NCBI GenBank assembly: GCA_963752475.1
Contig: CAVVYR010000007.1
Span: forward strand, 544,001-608,000
Direction of reading: 5' to 3'
DNA length: 64,000 nt
DNA from: an uncultured Chloroflexia bacterium
Lineage (GTDB): Bacteria > Chloroflexota > Limnocylindria > Limnocylindrales > CSP1-4
The position numbers were made by a program, and so were the translations under genes. Below are positions 27,128 to 45,141 of this stretch, in pieces (the stretch's first letter is position 1; every line of letters starts with the position of its first letter). Below the pieces are notes generated by a model, which saw only the letters and a program-made list of their open reading frames with translations, was not told where the DNA came from and did not search any database.

Positions 27128-27826
27128 GTGGCCATCCTCTGTCGCGATATCGGCCTGCTCTTCCTGCAAGCGCCGCATACCGGCTCGACCTCGCTGGGAA
27201 CGCTCTTCCGCGAGGACTTCGGCGGCGTCAAGCTCCTCGAGGACCGGGTGCGGGATGAGAAGGGCAGGATCGTGCTGCGGCAGAAGCACCAGAGTCTGCC
27301 GCAGCTGCTCGAGGCCGGGCTCATCACGCAACAGGAGCGTCGAGACCTGCTGGTCGTGGTCGGCGTGCGCAACCCGTACGACCTGGTGCTGACGGAGTAC
27401 GCCCGCAACCGCGAGGCTGGCACCGTCTCCCGAGCGCAACGGCTCATGCGCCGAGTGGGCCTCAGCCGGGACTTCTCCACGCCTGACTTCGAGCGCTTCG
27501 TGGTCCGGCGCTACACGCCCAACGCGCTCTACCGGGCGCTCGGGCGCCGACCGATGGTGCCGGTGGACTGGACCGAGGGCGCCGACCACATCATCCGCTT
27601 CGAGGCCATGCAAGAGGGGCTGGACCAAGCCCTGCGCAAGGCCGGCGTGAGCGAGCCCCATCCGCTGCCGCACCGCAACCCCACACGGTCGCGCCGAGAC
27701 CGCGACTACCGCACGATGTACACGCCTCGGGCACGTGAGATCGTGACTCGCGCCTACGCTCGCGAGTTGCACCAGCACGGCTACGCCTTCGAGTCTGACG
27801 ACGGCGGGGGGCGCGATGGAGAGTGA
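27128..27826 (+). CDS. sulfotransferase family 2-like protein (divergent PAPS motifs)
   Basis: LFLQAPHTGSTS resembles F.HIPKTG.TS; VRNPYD, IIRFE, DYRTMY, GYAF. Confidence 0.7.
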   Translation: MAILCRDIGLLFLQAPHTGSTSLGTLFREDFGGVKLLEDRVRDEKGRIVLRQKHQSLPQLLEAGLITQQERRDLLVVVGVRNPYDLVLTEYARNREAGTVSRAQRLMRRVGLSRDFSTPDFERFVVRRYTPNALYRALGRRPMVPVDWTEGADHIIRFEAMQEGLDQALRKAGVSEPHPLPHRNPTRSRRDRDYRTMYTPRAREIVTRAYARELHQHGYAFESDDGGGRDGE

Positions 27827-31503: not shown

Positions 31504-32019
31504 GTGAGCGAGCGCACTCGGCGCGTCGACCATCTCCTGCAGGAAGAGATCAGCGCCGTCATCCAACGCGAGGTGCACGATCCCCGCGTGGGCTTCGTGA
31601 CCATCACCAGCGTGGAGACCACGCCCGATCTGCAGCACGCCATGGTCTACGCCTCGGTCATCGGCGACGAGGCGCAGCGCAAGGCCACGATGGAGGCGCT
31701 CGGGCGGGCCATGCCCTTCGTTCGCCACAGCCTGGGCAAGCTGCGCCTGAAGCGCATCCCGCAGCTCCACCTACGTGAGGACGACAGCGCCCAGCGAAGC
31801 ACGCGCGTGATGCAGCTGCTCGACCAGGTCGAGGCCGAGCTGGAGGGCACCGCCGAGCATGTTGACGAGCCGGTGGCGGAGGTGCCAGAGCTGCCCACCC
31901 CGTCGACGCTCAACGAGACCACTGACCCTGAGGCGGCCGACGAGACGCTGCCGGCCGGCTATCGCCGCCGGGTGGACCGGGTGTCTTTGCGCAAAGCCAG
32001 GAAGCGCCGTGGTCGCTGA
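31504..32019 (+). CDS. rbfA: ribosome-binding factor A with C-terminal extension
   Basis: RTRRV..L.QEEIS, DPRVGFVTITSV..TPDL, LKRIPQL. Confidence 0.93.
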   Translation: MSERTRRVDHLLQEEISAVIQREVHDPRVGFVTITSVETTPDLQHAMVYASVIGDEAQRKATMEALGRAMPFVRHSLGKLRLKRIPQLHLREDDSAQRSTRVMQLLDQVEAELEGTAEHVDEPVAEVPELPTPSTLNETTDPEAADETLPAGYRRRVDRVSLRKARKRRGR

Positions 32020-33043
32020 GGGCATGCGTTCGCTGCTGCCCGCTGATCTGGCGGCCGTGCCGGCAGTAGTGCCGAACGCAATGCTGGCGGGCACTCGCGT
32101 GCTCACGACCGGCCACGAGAACCCGGATGCGGATGCCGTCGGTTCGGCGCTGGGCATCGCGCTCGCGCTGGAGTCGCTGGGGGCTCAGGTCGAGACCGTC
32201 TTCGCCGACCCGGTGCCCGCGATGTACGACTTCATGCCCGGTATCGAGCGAGCCCGCACATCGGTCAGCGCGAGCCTGGACCCCGATCTCATCGTCGTGT
32301 GCGATGGCGACCTTTCGCGGACCGGAGCCGTGCTGCAGGAGAACGCGGAGCTCTTTGGGCGCGTGCCCATCGTGAACATCGATCACCACGTCTCCAACAG
32401 CGGCGAGCACGGCGTTGCCTGGGTCGATGCCGATGCGGCGGCAACCTGCGAGCAGGCCACGCTGCTGCTGCCGGCGCTCGGGCTCGGGTTCGACGCCGCC
32501 GGTGGCGACATCGTGCAGCTGCTGACCGCGGGCCTCGTCTTCGACACTGCCAACTTCGCCCACTCCAACACGACCCCGCGCACGCTGCGCGTGGCCTCCG
32601 AGCTGGTCGCCGCCGGGGCCGACCTGCCGATGATCGCCCGACGCATCTACCGCACCAAGCCGAACGCGCAGCTCAAGCTCTTCGGGCGCGTGCTCTCGCG
32701 CCTCGAGACCTCCGTCGATGACCGGGTGACCTGGTCGGTCGTGACGCTCGACGACTTCGCCCGAGCCGGCGCGACGCAGGAGCAAGCCGAGGGCCTCATC
32801 GACTTGCTGGGGCAGTCGGCCGGCGCGGACATGGCGATCTTGTTCAAGGATCTCGGTGATGGCGTGCGCATCTCCATCCGTACCCGTGATGGCGGTGTCG
32901 ACGCCACACGGCTCGCGGGCGCCTTCGGGGGTGGCGGGCATGCACGGGCGGCGGGCGCCAGCCATGAAGGTCCGTTGGAGGACGCCCGTGAGGCGGTCCT
33001 GGGCCTGGCGGAGCAGTTGCTCGACGAGCTTCCCGCTACCTGA
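32009..33043 (+). CDS. nrnA: DHH/DHHA1 phosphoesterase (NrnA-like oligoribonuclease/pAp phosphatase)
   Basis: HENPDADAVGS, IDHH, DTANF, GGGGHARAAG; start at 32009 or 32024. Confidence 0.88.
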   Translation: MVAEGMRSLLPADLAAVPAVVPNAMLAGTRVLTTGHENPDADAVGSALGIALALESLGAQVETVFADPVPAMYDFMPGIERARTSVSASLDPDLIVVCDGDLSRTGAVLQENAELFGRVPIVNIDHHVSNSGEHGVAWVDADAAATCEQATLLLPALGLGFDAAGGDIVQLLTAGLVFDTANFAHSNTTPRTLRVASELVAAGADLPMIARRIYRTKPNAQLKLFGRVLSRLETSVDDRVTWSVVTLDDFARAGATQEQAEGLIDLLGQSAGADMAILFKDLGDGVRISIRTRDGGVDATRLAGAFGGGGHARAAGASHEGPLEDAREAVLGLAEQLLDELPAT

Positions 33044-35007: not shown

Positions 35008-35892
35008 CTAGACGAGGCGCGCCTGCAGTACGCGACAGACGAGGCGGGCGAGTGCCGTCGCCGAGGTCCCGTCAGGGTCACGCTCGGGCTCGAACTCGGT
35101 CACGACCATGCCCTCGAGGGAACCACGAGCGGCTAGGGCGACGAAGAGGTCGCCCAACACATCCACGCCGGGTCCGCCGGCAACGGGCGCACGCACAGCC
35201 GGGATGTCGGCCGGGTTCGTGCCGTCCACGTCGTAGACGATGACGAAGCGCTCACCCTCGACGAGGCGACCCGCGACCGCCTCCAGCCCGTCTCGCGCCA
35301 GTTCGCGCGCTCGGACGATGACGTTGCCGGCCTCGATCGTGTCCTGCACATCCGCGGGCCGGGCCGAGCCGACGCCGCGCTGGCCGACGTGGACGATGCG
35401 CCGCACCCAGCTCATCTCGCTCGCCCGACGCATGGGGCTGCTATAGCCGTGTGACTCGCCACCGACCTCATCGCGGAAGTCGAGGTGGGCATCGATCTGC
35501 ACGACCGTCACCGGACCATGATCACGCCAGCCGGCCACGAACGGCTCCGCCACCGAGTCGTCCCCGCCGAGGAGCAGCGGCATCGCTCCCTGGTTCACGA
35601 CCGAACTCACCGCGGTCGTGATGCGACGGCGGTTGCCCTCGGCATCGGCGCGAACGGTGTTGATATCGCCGCCATCGCCGACCAGCCGACGCCATGAGGC
35701 AAAGGGTCCATCGATATCGAAGTCGTAGTTGCCGGTGAAGAGTGCCAGTCGCCATGTCGCCGCCCGGAGCGCAGACGGGCCTTCGCTCGCGTGAGGATGT
35801 CGGTCTGGGTAGACCGTCGCCATCGCGGCTCCCAGTACCACCGCTTCACTCGATGTGGTGGGCGCTCCGACGCCCATGAACGTCTCAGTCAT
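35008..35892 (-). CDS. arginase/ureohydrolase family protein, probable formimidoylglutamase of the hut operon
   Basis: GGDDS, QIDAHLD, YDVDG motifs; overlaps the hutI stop. Confidence 0.8.
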   Translation of the reverse strand: MTETFMGVGAPTTSSEAVVLGAAMATVYPDRHPHASEGPSALRAATWRLALFTGNYDFDIDGPFASWRRLVGDGGDINTVRADAEGNRRRITTAVSSVVNQGAMPLLLGGDDSVAEPFVAGWRDHGPVTVVQIDAHLDFRDEVGGESHGYSSPMRRASEMSWVRRIVHVGQRGVGSARPADVQDTIEAGNVIVRARELARDGLEAVAGRLVEGERFVIVYDVDGTNPADIPAVRAPVAGGPGVDVLGDLFVALAARGSLEGMVVTEFEPERDPDGTSATALARLVCRVLQARLV

Positions 35893-37066
35893 CGGTCTCC
35901 CCTCCGTACCATGTCCACAGTGGCCGAACACCTCCGAGTCGCTGGACGAACGCCCCTTCGTGCTCGGCGTCCCAGGCGACGAGGTCAGCGTACGCCCCCG
36001 GCATGAGCCGTCCGATCTCGCCGTCGAGGCCGAGGGCCCCGGCCCCGCCGGCGGTCGCGGCCCAGACCGCCTCATCGATGGTCAGTCCGAGCACCGTCCC
36101 AAGCCCTACCGCGAGCGGCATCGACGGCTCACCGAAGGTGCCCGCGTTGGCATCGCTGGCCAACGCCACCGTCGCGCCGGCGTCGACCAGCGCCCGTGCC
36201 GGAGGCAGCCCGGCGCCCAGCATCAGGGCCGGTCCCGGGAGCAGCGTGGCCACCGTCGTCGAGTCGGCCAGCACCCGCGCGTCGTCCTCGGTGATCTGCT
36301 CGAGATGGTCGACCGACAACGCGCCCAGCTCGGCACCCAGCAGTGCCGCCCCCGATCGCTGCAACTGGTCGGCATGCAGCTTGAGCGGTAGCCCGTTGGC
36401 AGCGCCGGCTTCGGCGATGGCGCGGGTCCAGCCGAGGTCGAAGATGTCCGGCTCACAGAAGACGTCGATGTGGTCGGCGGCATCGGCCATCTCCGGCAGC
36501 GTCTCGAGGATGGCCTCGTGCTGCGTCTCGGCATCGGACTCGACAGGGATGGCGTGCGCTCCGAGGTGCGTCCGCCGCACACGCATCGGCAGCCCGTCGG
36601 ACGCCACGGCGATGAGGTTGAGCAGACGCAGCTCCTGGGTGGGTTCGAGCCCGTAGCCGGACTTGACCTCGATGGTCGTGGTGCCCCGGGCGAGCGCGGA
36701 CAGCAGACGCAGCCGCGTCTCGCGCACCAGCTCCTCATCGCTGGCCTCGACCGTGGCCTCGACGGTGCGCAGGATGCCGCCGCCGGCATATCGCTGGCCA
36801 CGGGTCCGGGCCGCCGCCTCGTCGCTCCGGTCACCCGCGAAGATGAGGTGCGTGTGCGAGTCGACGAGCCCCGGCGTCACGAGCGCGGTTCCGACATCCT
36901 CGACGATGTCAGGGTCTTCCGGCGCCAGTTCCCCCGGCCTGGTCTCGAGGATCCGCTCGCCCTCGACCACGAGCACCCACGGACCGTCGATGGCACCGGT
37001 CTCGCCCGTTCGCGCGCCGTCCATCGGCAGCAGGCGGCCCCGTCCGATGATCGCGTGCCGGTTCAT
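35885..37066 (-). CDS. hutI: imidazolonepropionase
   Basis: PGLVDSHTH, GGGILRTV, EVKSGYGL, DVFCE, LHADQL, VDHLE, ASDAN. Confidence 0.95.
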   Translation of the reverse strand: MNRHAIIGRGRLLPMDGARTGETGAIDGPWVLVVEGERILETRPGELAPEDPDIVEDVGTALVTPGLVDSHTHLIFAGDRSDEAAARTRGQRYAGGGILRTVEATVEASDEELVRETRLRLLSALARGTTTIEVKSGYGLEPTQELRLLNLIAVASDGLPMRVRRTHLGAHAIPVESDAETQHEAILETLPEMADAADHIDVFCEPDIFDLGWTRAIAEAGAANGLPLKLHADQLQRSGAALLGAELGALSVDHLEQITEDDARVLADSTTVATLLPGPALMLGAGLPPARALVDAGATVALASDANAGTFGEPSMPLAVGLGTVLGLTIDEAVWAATAGGAGALGLDGEIGRLMPGAYADLVAWDAEHEGAFVQRLGGVRPLWTWYGGETDD

Positions 37067-38676
37067 CGCGGATCCGGTCCCAACCAGGAGGTGCTGACTG
37101 TGGCGGCTGCGCCGGCCAGGTCCACCAGCGCTGCCTCGTGCACGAGCCGATAGGCTGCTTCGAGGTCAGGCCCGGGCTCACGGTCCTCCTCGAGCCGGGC
37201 GATCGTCGCTCGGACCCGCGCGTGGGCTTCTGCCACGCCGACCCCGGGGGTGGTCTCCGGCTGCAAGTCGAGCCGCAGGTCGAGGCCCTGCGATGCGCAG
37301 ATGACTTCGATGGCCACGATGCGCTCCGAGTGCTCAAGCACGGCCATGGCGTTGCGTGCCGCGATGGAGCCCATCGAGACATGGTCCTCCTGGTTGGCCG
37401 AGGTGGGGATCGAGTCGGCCGAGGCGGGGTGCGCCAGCGTCTTCGATTCCGATGCCAGGGCCGCGGCGGTGTACTGCAGGATCATCAACCCGGAGTCCAA
37501 CCCCGACGAAGCACCCAGGAAGGCCGGCAGCCCGTCGTTGAGTCGCGGGTCCAGCAGCAGCGCCACGCGTCGCTCGCTGATGGCACCGATCTCCGCGATG
37601 GCCAGCTTGGCGTAATCGAGCGCGAGAGCGATGGGTTCGCCATGGAAGTTGCCACCGCTGATGACCAGGCCGCGGCCGGTGGCCAATGCGTCCTCGGGCA
37701 CGGCCCCACCCTCGGGGAAGACGAGCGGATTGTCGGTGGCCGAGTTGAGCTCGATGTCGAGGACACGACGGAGGTTGTCGAGCGCATCGCGAGCGGCGCC
37801 ATGGACCTGCGGCACGCACCGCAGGGAGTACGGATCCTGGACACGGTGGTCGTCGCCATGGTGTGCGGTCTGGATGGTCGAGTCGCGCAGGAGCCAGCGC
37901 AGCTCGGCTGCGGTCTGTACCTGGCCCGGGTGTGGGCGGGTCGACTGCAGCGCGGCCGAGTAGGCCACGTCGGTACCACGCAGCGCCTCCACCGAGATGG
38001 CGGCGGCCACGCTGGCGGTGCGCGCCAGGCGGTCGGCTCCGGCCAGCACCAGCGCGCCGATGGCGCCCATCATCTGCGTGCCGTTGAGCAGGGCCAGCCC
38101 TTCCTTGGGCTCCAGCACCAGCGGGTCGAGCCCTGCCGTCATCAGCGCCTGTCGTGCGGGCATGACAGCGCCTTCGACCTCCACCCGGCCCTGACCGATG
38201 ACCGGCAGCGCGAGATGGGCGAGGGGAGCGAGATCACCCGACGCCCCGACGCTGCCCTGCGAGGGCACGACCGGGTGGATGCGCAGTCGCAGCAGCTCCA
38301 GTAGCCGTTCGATGAGCTCGGGTCGGCAGCCGGAGTGGCCGAGGGCCAGCGTGTTGGCACGCAACAGGAGCATCGCGCGCACGACCTCGGTCGGCAGTGG
38401 TTGGCCCACGCCGGCGGCGTGGCTCAGCAGCAGCCGCTCCTGCAACTCCCGGGCGCGCTCGGGTGGCACGAAGGTCGTGGCCAGCGAGCCGAAACCGGTG
38501 GTGACGCCGTAGACGACCTCACCCGAAGCCACCAGTCGCTCGATGACCGCACGGGCCTCGGTCACTCGCCGGCGCGCGCCACCGTCGAGCACGGCATAGC
38601 GTTCTCCGCGCGCGACCGATTCGACGTCGGGGACGGACAGTTCTGCGCCGTTGAGCACGACGGGGGCAGCCGTCAT
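37063..38676 (-). CDS. hutH: histidine ammonia-lyase
   Basis: [18 protein letters not shown]-forming [32 protein letters not shown]; ATGA overlaps. Confidence 0.97.
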
Positions 38677-40337
38677 CGTTCGCCCAGCATCGGGATGGCG
38701 ACGCCGCGCTCGCGTGCGACCTCGACCGCCCGTTCGTAGCCGGCGTCGACGTGACGCACGACGCCCATGCCCGGGTCCGTGGTGAGCACGCGCTCCAGCT
38801 TCCGCGCCGCCAGGTCGGTGCCGTCCGCGACGGCGACCATGCCGGCATGCTGGCTGTAGCCGATACCGACGCCGCCACCGTGGTGGATGCTGACCCAGCT
38901 GGCCCCCGCGGCGGTGTTGACGAGCGCGTTGAGCATGGGCCAATCGGCGACTGCGTCCGAGCCGTCCTTCATGGCCTCCGTCTCCCGGTTGGGCGAGGCC
39001 ACGGAGCCTGAATCGAGGTGGTCACGACCGATGACGATGGGTGCGCTCACAGCACCAGAGCCGACGAGGGCGTTGAAGACGCCCCCGGCCAGCCGTCGCT
39101 CCCCGTAGCCGAGCCAGCAGATGCGCGAAGGCAGTCCCTGGAAGGCGACATGGTCCTGGGCCTTGCGGATCCAGCGCGCGAGCGATGCGTCCTCGGGGAA
39201 GAGATCGAGGATGGCCTCGTCGGTGGTGCGGATATCGGCCGGATCTCCCGAGAGCGCGACCCAGCGGAAGGGCCCCTTGCCTTCGCAGAAGAGCGGCCGG
39301 ATGAATGCTGGCACGAAGCCGGGGAAGTCGAAGGCGTTATCGACACCACCGGACTGCGCTTGCGCCCGGATGTTGTTGCCGTAGTCGAAGGTCACCGAGC
39401 CTGCGGCCTGCAGCTCGAGCATCGCACGCACGTGCGCGGCCATCGACCCGACCGAACGACGGGTGTACTCGTCGGGGTCGGCGGCGCGGAGCTCCGCGGC
39501 AGCCTCGAGCGTCAGGCCGGCGGGCACGTAGCCGTTGAGCGCATCGTGGGCCGAGGTCTGATCGGTGACGGCATCGAAGCGCTCGCCACGTCGCACCAGC
39601 TCGGGCTCGACCTCGGCGGCGTTGCCGATGAGCCCGATCGAGAGCGGCTCGCCGGCGGCAGCCGCCGCCCGAGCCCAGCGCAGGGCTTCATCGAGATCGC
39701 CGGTCGAGCGGTCGAGGTAGCGTGTGTCGAGGCGCTTCTGGACGCGCGACCGATCGACCTCGATGCAGAGAGCCACGCCGTCGTTCATCGTCACCGACAG
39801 CGGCTGGGCGCCACCCATGCCGCCGAGGCCGGCCGTGAGCACGACGCGGCCACGCAGCGTGCCACCGAAGTGCTGGCGCGCCAGCTCGGCGAAGGTCTCG
39901 TAGGTGCCCTGAAGGATGCCCTGGCTGCCGATGTAGATCCAGGAGCCGGCGGTCATCTGGCCGTACATCATCAGGCCGGCCCGCTCGAGCTCGCGGAAGT
40001 GCTCCCACGTGGCCCACTTGCCCACGAGGTTGCTGTTGGCGATGAGCACCCGCGGGGCCCACTCGTTGGTGCGGAACACGGCCACGGGCTTGCCGGAGGC
40101 CACCAGCAGCGTCTCGTCGTCCTCGAGCCGGCGCAGTTCGCGCACGATGGCGTCGAAGGCCTCCCACGATCGAGCGGCGCGGCCGGTGCCGCCGTAGACG
40201 ACGAGGTCGTCGGGTCGCTCGGCCACCTCGGGATCGAGGTTGTTCATGAGCATGCGCAGCACCGCTTCCTGCTGCCAGCCACGGCAGCTGAGCTCCGTCC
40301 CGCGAGGGGCCCGGACCGGTCGTGCGCCGCTGCTCAT
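38673..40337 (-). CDS. hutU: urocanate hydratase
   Basis: [47 protein letters not shown]; SD AGGAGG. Confidence 0.98.
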
Positions 40338-40696
40338 CGTGTCGCTGCCTCCTGTCGCCGACAGCGTATCGCGTCGCTTCTCGCGGGGCTTGCCGTAGGC
40401 GAGCCCACCGGATACGGTCCGGCGCCACCCGCACCCCACGGTGACCCGCACCGCGATGTATCCAGGGAGAGCGCTCGAGCGGATCGGCTGGCAGGTGGCT
40501 GGCCGCACCATGGCTTTGCATGCTCGTCGGGAATCGGTCACAATGGTGGGCACGAACCGACGAGCGCCCGCGCATCTTCACTGACCATGCGGCGTTACGC
40601 CGGCTTCTAGTGTGGCTGTAGCACGGCCTATCCTGAGACTGTGTGCTATGCTGCCGCGCGTAACAGACAAGGTATATGGATAGGCTGGAGGACCAG

Positions 40697-40966
40697 TTGC
40701 CGCTTACGCGGGAAACGAAGGCAAGCGTCGTTGCCGACTACGCCACCAAGGAAGGTGACACCGGATCGCCGGAAGTCCAGATCGCGCTCCTGACGGAGCG
40801 GATCGGTGGGCTGACCGAGCATCTCCGACGCTACCCCAAGGATCATCACTCGCGCCGCGGCTTGCTCAAGCTCGTTGGCACGCGACGCCGCCTGCTTGCG
40901 TATCTCATGCGCAAGGACGCTGCCCGCTACCAGACCGTCATCGAACGGCTCGGCCTGCGCCGCTAA
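40697..40966 (+). CDS. rpsO: 30S ribosomal protein S15
   Basis: [28 protein letters not shown]; TTG start after GGAGG. Confidence 0.98.
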
Positions 40967-41098
40967 GGCGAAACGGCCCTGGCGGGCGCGGCCCGCTCGG
41001 TATCGGCACATCGCATACGCCAGAAGACCTCGTGTGAGGTCAGCGTAGACAACAACCCAACGCGCCCCGGTCCGTCGGTCGTCCCCGTTGGAGGACAG

Positions 41099-43696
41099 AT
41101 GACGGTAACCACCCTTACGACCGAATTCGGCGGTCGCACGATCACCATCGAGACTGGCAAGATGGCCAACCTCGCTGGTGGCTCCGTGACCGTGCAGTAC
41201 GGCGACACCATGCTGCTCGGTACGGCCAACCGTGCCAACCCCCGCCCCGGTCTCGACTTCTTCCCGCTCACGATCGATTTCGAGGAGCGGATGTACGCCG
41301 CGGGCAAGATCCCCGGCGGTTTCATCAAGCGTGAGGCCCGCCCGTCGGAGGCGGCCATCCTCGCGTGCCGCCTGACGGACCGTCCCATCCGCCCGCTCTT
41401 CCCCAAGGGCTACAAGGACGACGTCCAGTGCGTGCTCACCGTGCTCAGCACGGATCAGGAGAACAACCCCGACGTCATCGGCACCATCGCCGCGTCGGCT
41501 GCACTGACCATCAGCGAGATCCCGTTCCAGGGCCCCATCGGCGCTGTCCGCATCGGCCGCATCGATGGCGAGTTCGTGGTCAATCCGCTGGCCAGCCAGA
41601 TGGAGGAGTCGGAACTCGACCTCATCGTCGCCGGCACCGCTGACGCGATCATGATGGTCGAGGCTGGCGCCAAGATCCTGCCCGAGGACGTGATGGCTGA
41701 CGCGATCATGTTCGGCCACGAGTCCATCAAGCCCGTGATCGAGCTGCAGGAGCAGCTGCGCGAGCTGGTGGGCAAGGCCAAGCAGATCCCCTACATCGAG
41801 CCGTCCGTCGACTCTGTCGTCGACTTCGTGGACGCGGTAGATGCGGGCGAGTCCTTCGTCGTCTTCGACACCGAGACGACGAGCAAGGACGCCAGGACCG
41901 GCGAGCTCGTCGAGATCGGCGCCGTGCGCCTCTCCGGCGGCAAGGTCACCGACACCTTCGAGACGCTCGTCAAGCCCACTCGCGGCATCGTCGGCAACCA
42001 GATCCACGGCATCACCAACGCTGACGTCGAGGGCGCGCCCAGCCCGGCTGAGGCGGCTGCCCAACTCCTCGACTTCGCCGGCGACGACATCCTCGTCGGT
42101 CACAACGTCGGCTTCGACATCGGCTTCATCGAGGCCGCTCTGGCGGACGGGACCCGCATCGAGCCGGGCACCTACCTCGACACGCTCGTGATCGCGCGTG
42201 CCGGCTACCCCGATCTTGACGCTCACAAGCTGGGCGACCTGGTCGAGTTCTTCGGGCTCGACGTCGATCCCAAGCATCGCGCCCTGGCCGATGCCGAAGC
42301 CACCGCGGCCCTGCTCCAGGGCATGGCCGAGGACATCCCCGTCCGCGTCAACGCGTTCAAGTCGGCCGTCGCTGACACGATCCGCATGCGCAAGGGCGGC
42401 GACAACAACGACGTCGCAGACGCCGCCTTCGAGGCTGCGCTCGTGGCCTCCGGCCTGTCGAAGGGCTTCACCACGTTGCTGCACAAGAAGACCGTGCGTG
42501 AGGTCACCCTGGCCGAGGGTATCCGCATCGATGGTCGTGACGTGGACACCATCCGTCCCATCTCGGTCGAGGTCGGCCTGCTGCCGCGGGCCCACGGCTC
42601 CGGTCTCTTCACCCGCGGTCAGACGCAGGCGCTCACCGTGGCCACGCTTGGCCCTTCGAGCGACGTGCAGCGCATCGACACCATCAGTCCCGAAGAGTCG
42701 AAGCGCTACCTGCACCACTACAACATGCCCCCGTACAGCACCGGCGAGAACAAGTTCATGCGCGGCCCCGGCCGTCGTGAGATCGGCCACGGTGTCCTGG
42801 CGGAGCGCGCACTCCTGCCGGTCCTGCCGTCACAGGAGGAGTTCCCCTACGTCCTCCGCCTCGTGAGCGAGTGCGTCACCTCCAATGGCTCCACCTCCAT
42901 GGCCTCGACCTGCGGCTCGACGCTGGCACTGATGGACGCGGGTGTGCCCATCAAGGCACCTGTCGCGGGTGCGGCCATGGGTCTCATCACCGACGGCGAG
43001 GACTTCGTGGTCCTGACCGACATCCTCGGCAAGGAGGACTTCTTCGGTGACATGGACTTCAAGGTCACCGGCACCGAAGAGGGCGTCACCGCGCTCCAGA
43101 TGGACATCAAGGTCAAGGGCATCAACGAGGACATCATCCGCCAGGGCCTTCAGAAGGCCTACACGGCGCGCATGACCATCCTCGACAAGATGACCGAGGT
43201 CATCGGCGAGGCCCGTGAGGATGTCAGCGACTTCGCGCCGCGCATCACCACCATCAAGATCAACCCCGAGAAGATCCGCGACATCATCGGCAAGGGTGGT
43301 GCCACGATCCGCAAGATCCAGGAAGAGACCGGGACCGAGATCAACGTCGAGGACGACGGCAGCGTCGAGATCGCCGCGGTCGACCAGACCAAGTCGGCCA
43401 AGGCCATCGAGTGGATCGAGTCGATCACCAAGGAGGTCGAGGTCGGCGGGCTGTACCTGGGCAAGGTCACCCGCATCATGGGCTTCGGCGCCTTCGTCGA
43501 GATCCTGCCGGGCAAGGAAGGCCTCGTTCGCATCGGCGAGCTGGCTGACTACCACGTCCCCACCGTCGAGGACGTCGTCCAGGTCGGCGACGAGATCATG
43601 GTCGTGGTCATCGAGATCGACCGCCAGGGTCGCGTCAACCTGAGCCGCAAGGCCGCCATGCAGCGGCACCAGGCCAAGGAGGATGCGGAGGCCTAG
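41099..43696 (+). CDS. pnp: polyribonucleotide nucleotidyltransferase with inserted DEDDh exonuclease domain
   Basis: PH1 (DFFPL, AGKIPGGF.KRE, DRPIRPLF), DEDDh insert, PH2 (RIDGR, HGSGLFTRGQTQ, RREIGHG, SNGSTSMAS, DFFGDMDFK), KH (IIGKGG), S1. Confidence 0.97.
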   Translation: MTVTTLTTEFGGRTITIETGKMANLAGGSVTVQYGDTMLLGTANRANPRPGLDFFPLTIDFEERMYAAGKIPGGFIKREARPSEAAILACRLTDRPIRPLFPKGYKDDVQCVLTVLSTDQENNPDVIGTIAASAALTISEIPFQGPIGAVRIGRIDGEFVVNPLASQMEESELDLIVAGTADAIMMVEAGAKILPEDVMADAIMFGHESIKPVIELQEQLRELVGKAKQIPYIEPSVDSVVDFVDAVDAGESFVVFDTETTSKDARTGELVEIGAVRLSGGKVTDTFETLVKPTRGIVGNQIHGITNADVEGAPSPAEAAAQLLDFAGDDILVGHNVGFDIGFIEAALADGTRIEPGTYLDTLVIARAGYPDLDAHKLGDLVEFFGLDVDPKHRALADAEATAALLQGMAEDIPVRVNAFKSAVADTIRMRKGGDNNDVADAAFEAALVASGLSKGFTTLLHKKTVREVTLAEGIRIDGRDVDTIRPISVEVGLLPRAHGSGLFTRGQTQALTVATLGPSSDVQRIDTISPEESKRYLHHYNMPPYSTGENKFMRGPGRREIGHGVLAERALLPVLPSQEEFPYVLRLVSECVTSNGSTSMASTCGSTLALMDAGVPIKAPVAGAAMGLITDGEDFVVLTDILGKEDFFGDMDFKVTGTEEGVTALQMDIKVKGINEDIIRQGLQKAYTARMTILDKMTEVIGEAREDVSDFAPRITTIKINPEKIRDIIGKGGATIRKIQEETGTEINVEDDGSVEIAAVDQTKSAKAIEWIESITKEVEVGGLYLGKVTRIMGFGAFVEILPGKEGLVRIGELADYHVPTVEDVVQVGDEIMVVVIEIDRQGRVNLSRKAAMQRHQAKEDAEA
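41846..42330 (+). other. DEDDh/DnaQ-like 3'-5' exonuclease domain within PNPase
   Basis: ExoI FVVFDTETT, EIGAV, IHGIT, ExoII GHNVGFD, LDTL, ExoIII HRALADA; boundaries approximate. Confidence 0.93.
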
Positions 43697-43733
43697 CGCC
43701 TCGCGCCCCTGGCGCACTCACGCAAGCGACATG

Positions 43734-43770
43734 GACCGCCGTCCTCATCGAGAGGGCGGCGGTCTCGTTC
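43734..43770 (+). terminator. stem-loop after pnp
   Basis: GACCGCCGTCCT / AGGGCGGCGGTC 12-bp stem (one G-U), weak U tail. Confidence 0.6.
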
Positions 43771-44052
43771 GTCCCGTGTGGTCACCCGCAGTCTTGGGTG
43801 GCACCATCAGGGCCTTGTCCCCACCACAGGGCCGATCGACCGACCGGATGGCTTATCCGCTGGGCTCAGCCGCCGATCGGCCTGCCTCGTGGGACGAACG
43901 GCAGCCGAACGCTTCCTGCTCGGTCGCATGGCACCCCTGCTGGGAGAGCCGGGCCGCACCGGCGGATACTCGGTCGTTCGGCACCCCAGGTGGTTCAGCC
44001 AGGCGTCGAGGTGCCCCGGCATCCGCGGTGGATCCGTCGCCGGTCGGTCCGC

Positions 44053-45141
44053 TCAGTGGGCCGGCTCGGGCCCCTTGAGTGCAGCTTCGTAGACGTCGCG
44101 CGTGGCATCGGCCACGCGCTCCCAATCGAAGCGTGAGAGGTCGGCGGCGTTGTGGCGCCCCATGGCCTCGAGGTCCACATCCATCGCGGTTCGCAGTGCG
44201 CCCTCGAGGCCCTGCGGGTCGTCCGCGTCGTAGAGGATGCCGCCCTGCTCGTCGAGCACATCGGTGACACAGCCACGACGGGGCGCGATGACGGCCCGTT
44301 CGAAGGACATCGCCAGCAGCACCGAGCCGCTGGTGAAGATCTCGAGGAAGGGAGCGGCGACCACGTCCGCGGCTCGCAGGTAGAGCTGCAGGTCGTCGTC
44401 CTCGACGAACCCGAGCGAGAGATGGATGCGTTCATCGCCCTTGGCCGCGGCCGTCAGGCGTGCGGCGTAGGCACCGTCTACGGCCTGGCCCGCGATGACC
44501 AGGCGGGCGTCCGGCTCGTCGAGCTTGGTGAACGCCTCATACAGCTCCCACACGCCCTTGTAGCTGCGGACCCAGCCCACGAACGAGATGACCTTGGCCT
44601 CTGCGGGCAGGCCCAGCCGGTCTCGGGCCTCCTCGCGCGTGACGTCGTCGGCGTAGGCGCCTTTGTAGTGGCCGTGGGGGATGATGGCGATCTTCGCCCG
44701 TCCGGCCTCGCCGACGCCGAGCGTCTGGAGCAGCCCATCGGCGGCGGCACTGCAGTGGACGATGACCGTGTCCACCAGTTCGAAGAGCGAGCGCATGAAG
44801 GCCAGCTCGTTGGGATCCTCACGCCTGTCGTGGCGGAAGAGGTCGTGAGCCGTCCACACCAGGCCGATGCCACTGCGCTTGGCTAGTCGCAGCTCCACGA
44901 GGGTGCGTTTGGCTTTCACCCGGCTGACCTTGCTGCTCCCGCCGGCGATGTAGGGCTCGGTCCAGTGGATATGGAGGACGTCCGGTCGGCCGTGGCGCCG
45001 CAGCGCTTCCACGACGGGCAGCACGCGCCGCGATCCGGTGGGGTCGGCGCTGACGCTGACTCCACGCGACTCCAGCCCATCGGTGAGGGCGCGCTGGTAG
45101 GCATTGGCGGCCGAGTAGTCGGGCAGGAACAGGACCTTCAC
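44053..45141 (-). CDS. GT4 glycosyltransferase (GumI-like mannosyltransferase type)
   Basis: NAYQ, HIHW, WTAH, IPHGHY, G.VRSYKG, TSGSVLLAMSF; GTG start at 45141. Confidence 0.88.
   Translation of the reverse strand: MKVLFLPDYSAANAYQRALTDGLESRGVSVSADPTGSRRVLPVVEALRRHGRPDVLHIHWTEPYIAGGSSKVSRVKAKRTLVELRLAKRSGIGLVWTAHDLFRHDRREDPNELAFMRSLFELVDTVIVHCSAAADGLLQTLGVGEAGRAKIAIIPHGHYKGAYADDVTREEARDRLGLPAEAKVISFVGWVRSYKGVWELYEAFTKLDEPDARLVIAGQAVDGAYAARLTAAAKGDERIHLSLGFVEDDDLQLYLRAADVVAAPFLEIFTSGSVLLAMSFERAVIAPRRGCVTDVLDEQGGILYDADDPQGLEGALRTAMDVDLEAMGRHNAADLSRFDWERVADATRDVYEAALKGPEPAH

Follow-up and report, generated by a model that had tools for sequence, protein, structure and literature searches.

Polynucleotide phosphorylase (PNPase) is among the most studied enzymes of RNA decay, and from bacteria to organelles its domain plan is considered invariant. 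The enzyme also polymerises nucleoside diphosphates into 3' tails, and the role of its own helical domain is poorly understood. The eukaryotic RNA exosome joins a PH-domain ring bearing an S1/KH face to a hydrolytic 3'-5' nuclease, as the fusion described here would; of the exosome nucleases, Rrp6 belongs to the wider DEDD superfamily, and Rrp44 is located across the ring from the S1/KH cap, like the helical domain of PNPase. PolC holds an exonuclease of the DnaQ family as an internal insertion. We analysed a stretch of DNA of 64,000 nucleotides (the window) from an uncultured Chloroflexia bacterium (contig CAVVYR010000007.1, positions 544,001 to 608,000) and found that its pnp gene encodes a PNPase with a complete DEDDh 3'-5' exonuclease domain inside the helical domain, an architecture noticed in an earlier reading of the letters alone (the sequence-only reading). 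A full-text literature search, judged mostly from abstracts and with supplements outside its scope, did not turn up any account of a PNPase that carries a DEDD, DnaQ or RNase T domain, and it likewise produced no characterised example, in agreement with that reading. Sequences of the fusion are already in public databases under automatic names, and what is new is a variation on a familiar enzyme rather than a different kind of system.

The pnp product contains an inserted DEDDh exonuclease domain

The pnp product (P0001; residue numbers refer to it throughout) is read from a single unbroken frame on the forward strand that starts with ATG and encodes 865 aa. The sequence-only reading had placed such a gene after rpsO, and the frame together with the Ribosomal_S15 match of its neighbour confirmed this. 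The features of the locus are as follows.

40676..40966, + strand: rpsO (ribosomal protein S15), directly 5' of pnp; Pfam Ribosomal_S15, E 8.7e-35
41090..41094, + strand: GGAGG, a ribosome-binding-like site 4 nt before the pnp ATG, read from the sequence
41099..43696, + strand: pnp open reading frame (ORF), PNPase with inserted DEDDh domain; TIGR03591 in two stretches
41132..41722, + strand: first RNase PH domain (PH1, residues 12-142) and PH_C part (145-208); PF01138, PF03725
41723..41857, + strand: N-terminal helices of the helical domain and linker into the insert (residues 209-253); helices 211-224 and 238-248 of the AlphaFold2 model, junction alignment
41858..42316, + strand: inserted DnaQ/PolC-type DEDDh 3'-5' exonuclease domain (residues 254-406); PF00929, TIGR00573, PDB 2p1j
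42317..42508, + strand: C-terminal helices of the remodelled helical domain (residues 407-470); AlphaFold2 helices, weak PF03726 match
42509..43198, + strand: second RNase PH domain (PH2) with GSTS 597-600 and GDMDFK 650-655; second Pfam stretch, TIGR02065 at 471-694, alignment with 5yjj
43247..43420, + strand: KH domain (residues 717-774); Pfam KH_1, E 7.4e-12
43436..43651, + strand: S1 domain (residues 780-851); Pfam S1, E 2.2e-16

The Pfam scan of P0001 returned RNase_PH twice (E 3.2e-51) and RNase_PH_C twice, followed by KH_1 and S1. Between the two PH halves, residues 254-406 matched RNase_T (PF00929) along the entire profile (positions 1-164 of 164), with E 1.5e-30 and 107.4 bits (cut-off 24). 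In NCBIfam, the PNPase model TIGR03591 scored 953.8 bits (cut-off 525.05), with one matched stretch on each side of the insert, and the Pfam model of the PNPase helical domain (PF03726) matched weakly (18 bits against a cut-off of 24.6; residues 459-481, profile positions 59-81 of 81). The catalytic pentad D257, E259, D340, H393 and D398 is present in full, H-x-A-x-x-D motif included, and PH2 contains SNGSTSMAS and DFFGDMD, in which we take the GSTS and GDMDFK residues to be catalytic. The profile scans thus bear out the sequence-only reading in that a complete DEDDh domain with all five residues lies between PH1 and PH2, and the domain matches and conserved PH2 motifs support its view that PH1, PH2, KH and S1 are intact.

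When P0001 was aligned with the best solved PNPase, 5yjj, residues 7-245 corresponded to chain residues 21-259 and residues 461-855 to 316-710. Residues 246-460 of the query (215 residues) therefore stand in place of chain residues 260-315 (56 residues), a net gain of about 159 aa. The G+C content (0.64-0.69) is flat along pnp and has no step at the insert.

The fusion is shared by three families of one class

The genome of the window (G000) is metagenome-assembled, in 38 contigs, with 88.8% completeness, 5.8% contamination and one pnp. We compared it with a sample of 121 genomes of its class and with a sample of 401 Chloroflexota genomes, G000 counted; both include genomes flagged unpublished (G103, G123, G127, G132, G141, G147, G461), of which the conclusions are independent. 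Internal labels f1-f5 denote families of this one Chloroflexota class, and g1 and g2 denote genera. A junction query of 271 aa (residues 200-470), which spans both junctions, was run on the 401 genomes. The results showed an end-to-end match in 23/23 genomes of f1, 4/4 of f2 and 16/16 of f4 (43/43), and in G000, and in 0 of the 357 remaining Chloroflexota genomes. In eleven of these 357 the query matched with its exonuclease part alone (E 3e-27 to 1e-25), the frames being 314-1245 aa long.

In the class sample, the insert was present in 35/35 genomes of f1, 5/5 of f2 and 39/40 of f4, the last comprising one match truncated by the end of a contig and 38 that are nearly full. A pnp match was found in 38/39 genomes of f3 and in the single genome of f5 (1/1), and among the matches listed all were split into about 2-239 and 445-856; by these matches the PNPase of f3 and f5, with a frame of about 740-810 aa, is one without the insert. 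At genus level, a match was obtained in 23/24 genomes of g1 and in 16/16 of g2, whose genomes measure 1.0-1.4 Mb, and those matches that were neither shortened nor fragmented run unbroken through the insert. Single in-frame stops (TGA, TAG or TAA) within an otherwise full-length pnp match were observed in six genomes (G017, G077, G091, G099, G042, G134); they could be sequencing errors, pseudogenes or recoding.

Protein databases gave the same picture. With residues 235-430 as the query, 398 proteins reached E <= 0.001 among 8000 scored candidates, and the best 120 of these 398, drawn from NCBI, ENA, JGI and Logan assemblies, contain both RNase_T and RNase_PH, most of them at about 860-870 aa. 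NCBI names such relatives polyribonucleotide nucleotidyltransferase of Chloroflexota, of Candidatus Limnocylindrales and once of Anaerolineae, and JGI names them either 'DNA polymerase III epsilon subunit family exonuclease' or 'polyribonucleotide nucleotidyltransferase'. The same Pfam pair also occurs in ESM Atlas clusters of 125, 164 and 109 members, in which Chloroflexota are the most common.

At the level of assembled reads, contigs from a public run (X1) bridge 41669-42021 and 42106-42348, although X1 may be the source sample and so perhaps not independent, and a run from another study covers 41674-41849. RNA-library contigs from X11 and X16 are identical to the window over 41567-41800, 42371-42521 and 42578-42728; none of the X11 or X16 contigs lies over the exonuclease domain, and such contigs are no proof of transcription.

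The architecture is real, and of this we are nearly certain. An artefact of assembly or gene calling, either a chimeric contig or a read-through of two genes, could be suspected because the window comes from a metagenome-assembled genome with some estimated contamination, but its probability is negligible: the same insertion site recurs in the best 120 of the 398 relatives from several sources and in 43/43 genomes of f1, f2 and f4, the gene is one open frame without a composition step, and the X1 contigs bridge the two intervals given above. Chimeric assembly in particular is ruled out by the database relatives and by the surveys of g1 and g2, the class and the phylum. The sequence-only reading had counted relatives lacking the insert against the fusion; f3 and f5 do lack it, and the pattern that they form is a clean clade-specific gain rather than an artefact.

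The insert was probably gained once and has been conserved since

We aligned 23 PNPases across the junctions (G000, 12 other insert-bearers, 6 insert-less members of the class and 4 PNPases of other classes); the outgroup G163 was left out of this alignment and of the core tree. The insertion site and its flanking linkers are shared by f1, f2 and f4, and residues 209-253 hold a clade-specific PYIEP..DSV..F stretch. A maximum-likelihood core tree was built from 614 columns (query 5-232 and 470-855), with the insert and helical flanks excluded, and rooted on the four PNPases of other classes. In this tree the insert-bearers form one clade (100/100) and the insert-less f3 and f5 form its sister clade (100/100), so that one change explains the distribution. 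The simplest history would be a single gain in the ancestor of f1, f2 and f4. The trees of the exonuclease domain also place the inserts in one group, with Shimodaira-Hasegawa-like approximate likelihood ratio test values of 94 (158 rows) and 92 (62 rows), and their inner split of f4 against f1 and f2 mirrors the core tree.

Conservation was measured in a MAFFT alignment of 111 full-length orthologues. D257, E259, D340, H393 and D398 are each invariant in 111/111. Mean major-residue frequency is 0.78 in the exonuclease domain, 0.66-0.69 in the helical flanks and 0.93 in the PH cores, and conservation reaches 98% or more at 38 of the 153 positions of the exonuclease domain. When f1 is compared with f4, the insert region drops to 36-42% identity with the pentad unchanged. 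On the PNPase side, G597 S598 T599 S600 and G650 D651 M652 D653 F654 K655, aligned to 5yjj, are invariant in the 111 sequences, as are SNGSTSMAS and DFFGDMD in the same alignment. Since the pentad and the PNPase phosphate and metal motifs are both invariant, both catalytic centres appear to be maintained. These results suggest that the insert has been vertically inherited under purifying selection since its gain.

The model places the insert within the helical domain

An AlphaFold2 model computed from the 111-sequence alignment had a mean predicted local distance difference test score (pLDDT) of 74.9 and a predicted template modelling score of 0.73, with pLDDT of about 90-97 in the insert. A Foldseek search placed the model among PNPases. 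In the model, the last exonuclease helix, which carries H393 and D398, is part of a single helix (395-430) that runs into the helical domain; helices 437-451 and 455-473 come next and lead into PH2, and the helices at 211-248 and 395-473 flank the insert. The continuity of the exonuclease helix with a helical-domain helix suggests that the insert is rigidly mounted.

In the E. coli PNPase core, the helical domain is reported to lie on the upper side of the torus, away from S1 and KH on the underside, to contribute to a side pore that leads to the active site, and to tolerate variation between species (PMC2723993). According to the same paper, RNA that came in by this pore would reach the active site in a poor orientation. 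The position predicted for the insert by homology with solved PNPases, on the ring face opposite KH/S1 and beside the helical-domain pore, is consistent with the published structures. The sequence-only reading had put the insert within the helical domain on the opposite face; the first point is supported, and the second agrees with the E. coli core (PMC2723993).

The inserted domain is of the DnaQ/PolC/DinG type

Scored alone, the insert passed the cut-off of the dnaq family model TIGR00573 (84.6 bits against 71.5). Its best partial matches in NCBIfam were the PRK07883 'DEDD exonuclease domain-containing' models, PolC and DinG, all below their full-length cut-offs. It stayed below those of DNA polymerase III epsilon (TIGR01406, 81.1 against 222.7 bits), of PolC (NF001688, 124.2 against 873 bits; the ORF has no polymerase domains) and of exonuclease-DinG (NF005981, 110.8 against 789 bits; TIGR01407, 105.4 against 547.7 bits; by Pfam the pnp ORF has no DEAD or Helicase_C_2 domain). 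Among PDB sequences, the matches were the following.

PDB 2p1j: PolC-type exonuclease, E 7.9e-25, 156/169 residues
PDB 9qpc: PolC, E 1.1e-20
PDB 8zef: DinG, E 2.6e-14
PDB 8fy9: Cas2-DEDDh, E 3.6e-12
PDB 1j53: Pol III epsilon, E 2e-9
PDB 4fzx: Exonuclease X, E 4.9e-5
PDB 2f96: RNase T, partial match (query 85-164), E 3e-4

No Orn chain was among the 12 PDB sequences matched at E <= 0.001, and no Orn or RNase T model was among the best 25 of 28 NCBIfam matches. By sequence, then, the inserted domain is of the DnaQ/PolC/DinG type and not of the Orn or RNase T type. Identity as an Orn-like nanoRNase is ruled out by the PDB and NCBIfam scores as family membership; the domain may still have such a function.

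In a search of 1.84 billion representatives, 32 matches lay below 1e-30, mostly fragments of the same fusion, and beneath them came a continuum of DnaQ-like domains 40-47% identical to the insert. The best non-PNPase relatives have varied architectures: stand-alone proteins of about 190 aa, exonuclease with BRCT, tandem exonucleases, PolC, exonuclease-DinG, and exonuclease with GIY-YIG. The nearest rows in the tree were a 211-aa stand-alone protein, an exonuclease-GIY-YIG protein and one other, with support of only 82-84. An approximately unbiased (AU) test on 62 rows did not reject the joining of the inserts with 11 Chloroflexota DinG-type exonucleases (p-AU 0.73), a group that was named after seeing the tree. 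Two proteins considered as stand-alone relatives inside the insert clade (P0245 and P0124) were both frameshifted PNPase fragments and were discarded. Among the best non-PNPase relatives, P0134, P0136, P0143-P0148 and P0177 carry two or three tandem RNase_T domains, some with BRCT or UVR motifs, and in one PolC-like protein (1631 aa) the exonuclease domain is present twice.

The carrier of the exonuclease differs between sister clades

The insert is the sole PF00929 match in G000. Exactly one PF00929 match was found in 29/35 genomes of f1 and 36/40 of f4, and among the matches listed its coordinates lie inside the pnp match. In f3 and f5, RNase_T forms the N-terminal part of a protein some 890 aa long with DEAD and Helicase_C_2 domains, that is, exonuclease-DinG; an example is P0272 (locus L008:2995-5673, + strand), with RNase_T at 5-159 followed by DEAD and Helicase_C_2. 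When P0272 was searched against G000, the only match was the PNPase insert, at 38% identity.

Helicase_C_2 (PF13307) was found in 38/39 genomes of f3 and 1/1 of f5, and in 1/35 of f1 (in a 2041-aa frame), 0/5 of f2 and 1/40 of f4 (a contig-end fragment); the insert-bearing families thus have it in 2/80 genomes, both cases atypical. It had no match anywhere in G000. Within the class, then, a DnaQ-type exonuclease is carried by DinG in f3 and f5 and by PNPase in their sister clade f1, f2 and f4.

We also searched for the RNB domain of RNase II/R (PF00773), which was found in 0/121 class genomes by a search that was positive in 11/14 control genomes. Compensation by the insert for a missing RNase II/R was discarded, as there is no correlation: RNB was not found with or without the insert. 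The gene cluster of the window contains a candidate nanoRNase of another kind.

31859..33043, + strand: DHH/DHHA1 phosphoesterase, NrnA-like candidate nanoRNase; Pfam DHH and DHHA1; between rbfA and truB

Possible functions of the fusion

The inserted domain is, from its sequence, likely to be catalytically active. Each protomer would then add a metal-dependent hydrolytic 3'-5' site that needs no phosphate, and the trimer would carry three such sites on its distal face, near the side pores. The phosphorolytic PNPase would be kept, with both PH domains, the phosphate and metal motifs, KH and S1. We tentatively favour a reading in which the exonuclease uses PNPase as a nucleic-acid-binding platform and trims 3' ends, its substrates being single-stranded DNA (ssDNA) 3' ends, RNA in RNA-DNA hybrids, and structured RNA. 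It would thereby do the job of the DnaQ-type exonucleases that are fused to DinG elsewhere and replace the nuclease of DinG. This DinG-like 3' trimming of ssDNA and of RNA in hybrids or structures is favoured because of the kinship of the domain, the swap with exonuclease-DinG and the published biochemistry of B. subtilis DinG, and it falls somewhat short of being probable. The B. subtilis DinG paper also mentions PNPase as a further 3'-5' exonuclease acting on 3' tails (PMC12525004). The suggestion of the sequence-only reading that the insert may act on ssDNA in repair gains support from the domain kinship and from the complementary distribution with exonuclease-DinG.

Several points weigh against DinG-like trimming. 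The host protein, its KH and S1 domains and the rpsO-pnp setting point to RNA over DNA. The insert is 36-38% identical to the DinG exonuclease of its own class and is not specifically its sister in the free trees. A second, weaker RNase_T match (frame of about 206-246 aa) occurs in 4/5 genomes of f2 and in a few of f1 and f4, so the insert is not always the sole DEDDh domain. The DinG/PNPase complementarity amounts to two sister clades, hence one evolutionary event, and could be coincidence, and with G000 incomplete at 88.8%, a missing gene there is no proof of absence. Finally, the AlphaFold2 model has low confidence at 47-96, at 519-559 and in the S1 domain.

The hydrolytic site might instead act on RNA without any role on DNA, by finishing short oligonucleotides, by clearing stalled or structured 3' ends, or by sustaining decay when phosphate is scarce; we consider this possible and somewhat less probable than DinG-like trimming. 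The protein that hosts it is the chief 3'-5' exoribonuclease, has KH and S1 domains and lies in the rpsO-pnp setting, and because RNB was not found in the 121 class genomes, PNPase would carry much of the 3'-5' decay load. No Orn-like second RNase_T gene was found in G000. The related domain of S. aureus DinG is reported to degrade ssRNA (PMC12525004), and the helical-domain pore offers a route to the phosphorolytic site (PMC2723993). The absence of RNB is, however, common to the insert-less f3 and f5 and leaves it unexplained why one clade has the insert; the kin of the domain are DNA-directed exonucleases rather than Orn or RNase T, and the complementarity with exonuclease-DinG is left unaccounted for. 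The NrnA-like DHH/DHHA1 gene in the same cluster also counts against a role limited to RNA. For this reason, and given the DnaQ/PolC/DinG type of the domain, the proposal in the sequence-only reading that the insert finishes the limit oligonucleotides of PNPase looks weaker than it did.

A further possibility combines both activities in a two-chemistry machine, in which a 3' end would be passed between the phosphorolytic and hydrolytic sites via the helical-domain pore and the role of DinG at R-loops and ssDNA ends would be taken over; we regard this as unlikely. It is more doubtful still that the exonuclease is an editing module that trims or limits the 3' tails made by PNPase, the 3' end shuttling as between a polymerase and its editing exonuclease. 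Among solved structures the nearest kin are indeed the proofreading domains of PolC and the epsilon subunit, and the rigid helical connection adjoins the helical-domain pore, but in the published view RNA arriving by that route would meet the active site in a poor orientation (PMC2723993). Lowest among the functional readings we place a silent passenger or a purely structural or regulatory domain, such as a docking surface for a partner or an oligomerisation module. The reported tolerance of the helical domain for variation between species (PMC2723993) would allow it; against it, the pentad is invariant in 111/111 orthologues while f1-f4 insert identity falls to 36-42%, 38/153 positions of the domain are at least 98% conserved, and the domain is kept in genomes of 1.0-1.4 Mb.

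Gene neighbourhood of pnp

The gene order in the window is proS, an ORF without a Pfam match, nusA, infB, rbfA, the DHH/DHHA1 gene, truB, ribF, a hut block on the reverse strand, rpsO, pnp and glycosyltransferases. The ORF between proS and nusA (27128-27826, + strand) encodes 232 aa and has no Pfam match at E <= 1e-5; RimP is the usual gene at this position. The histidine-utilisation block between ribF and rpsO (35008-40553, - strand) contains urocanase, a HutH-like aromatic amino acid lyase, a HutI-like amidohydrolase and an arginase-family enzyme. A promoter and terminator scan of 40500-44100 gave nothing above chance. Long frames run antisense to pnp (714 aa and 295 aa; for example 40646-42790, - strand). 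They are typical of high-G+C DNA and probably not genes, and in 7 related loci the antisense frame is the longest.

Implications and comparison with known systems

From these sequences, a whole clade appears to carry a second catalytic centre of different predicted chemistry inside the PNPase helical domain. Among the members of the clade are streamlined genomes of freshwater type, about 1.1 Mb in size, and in most of these genomes the insert is the only DnaQ-family nuclease found. The fusion bears on the purpose of the helical-domain face of PNPase, on the coupling of phosphorolytic and hydrolytic 3'-5' decay in one ring, and on whether evolution can reinforce the reported DNA-repair side activities of PNPase. 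That one clade has exonuclease-DinG and its sister exonuclease-PNPase amounts to a natural experiment on the scaffold that a DnaQ-type nuclease needs. If the two-chemistry machine were true, one enzyme would link bulk RNA decay to genome maintenance across the clade, and these bacteria would have, in a single polypeptide, an equivalent of the exosome and its hydrolytic partners.

Compared with canonical PNPase (5yjj, 3cdi, 7ogk, 4am3, 1e3p), the protein has the same PH1-helical-PH2-KH-S1 order, the same rpsO-pnp gene order and the same phosphate and metal motifs, and it scores 714.8 bits to 5yjj (E 1.3e-213); it differs by the roughly 159 extra residues, which form a complete DEDDh domain in the helical domain, and by its weak match to PF03726. 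Its predicted DEDDh chemistry and 3'-5' polarity are those of Orn and RNase T, but no Orn chain was among the 12 PDB sequences matched, and RNase T matches only partially at E 3e-4. With the proofreading domains of the PolC type and DnaQ family (2p1j, 9qpc, TIGR00573) the insert shares the family score and the DEDDh pentad; unlike them, it is attached to no polymerase and lies far below the PolC and DnaQ equivalog cut-offs. In exonuclease-DinG of B. subtilis and S. aureus (8zef), an exonuclease of the same family is likewise fused to a protein that handles nucleic acids, whereas here the carrier is a phosphorolytic RNase ring without a helicase domain. In contrast to the exosome with Rrp44 and Rrp6, the domain is a DEDDh exonuclease of the DnaQ type rather than of the RNase D type or RNB, the ring itself is predicted to be active, and the putative hydrolytic site is built covalently into each protomer.

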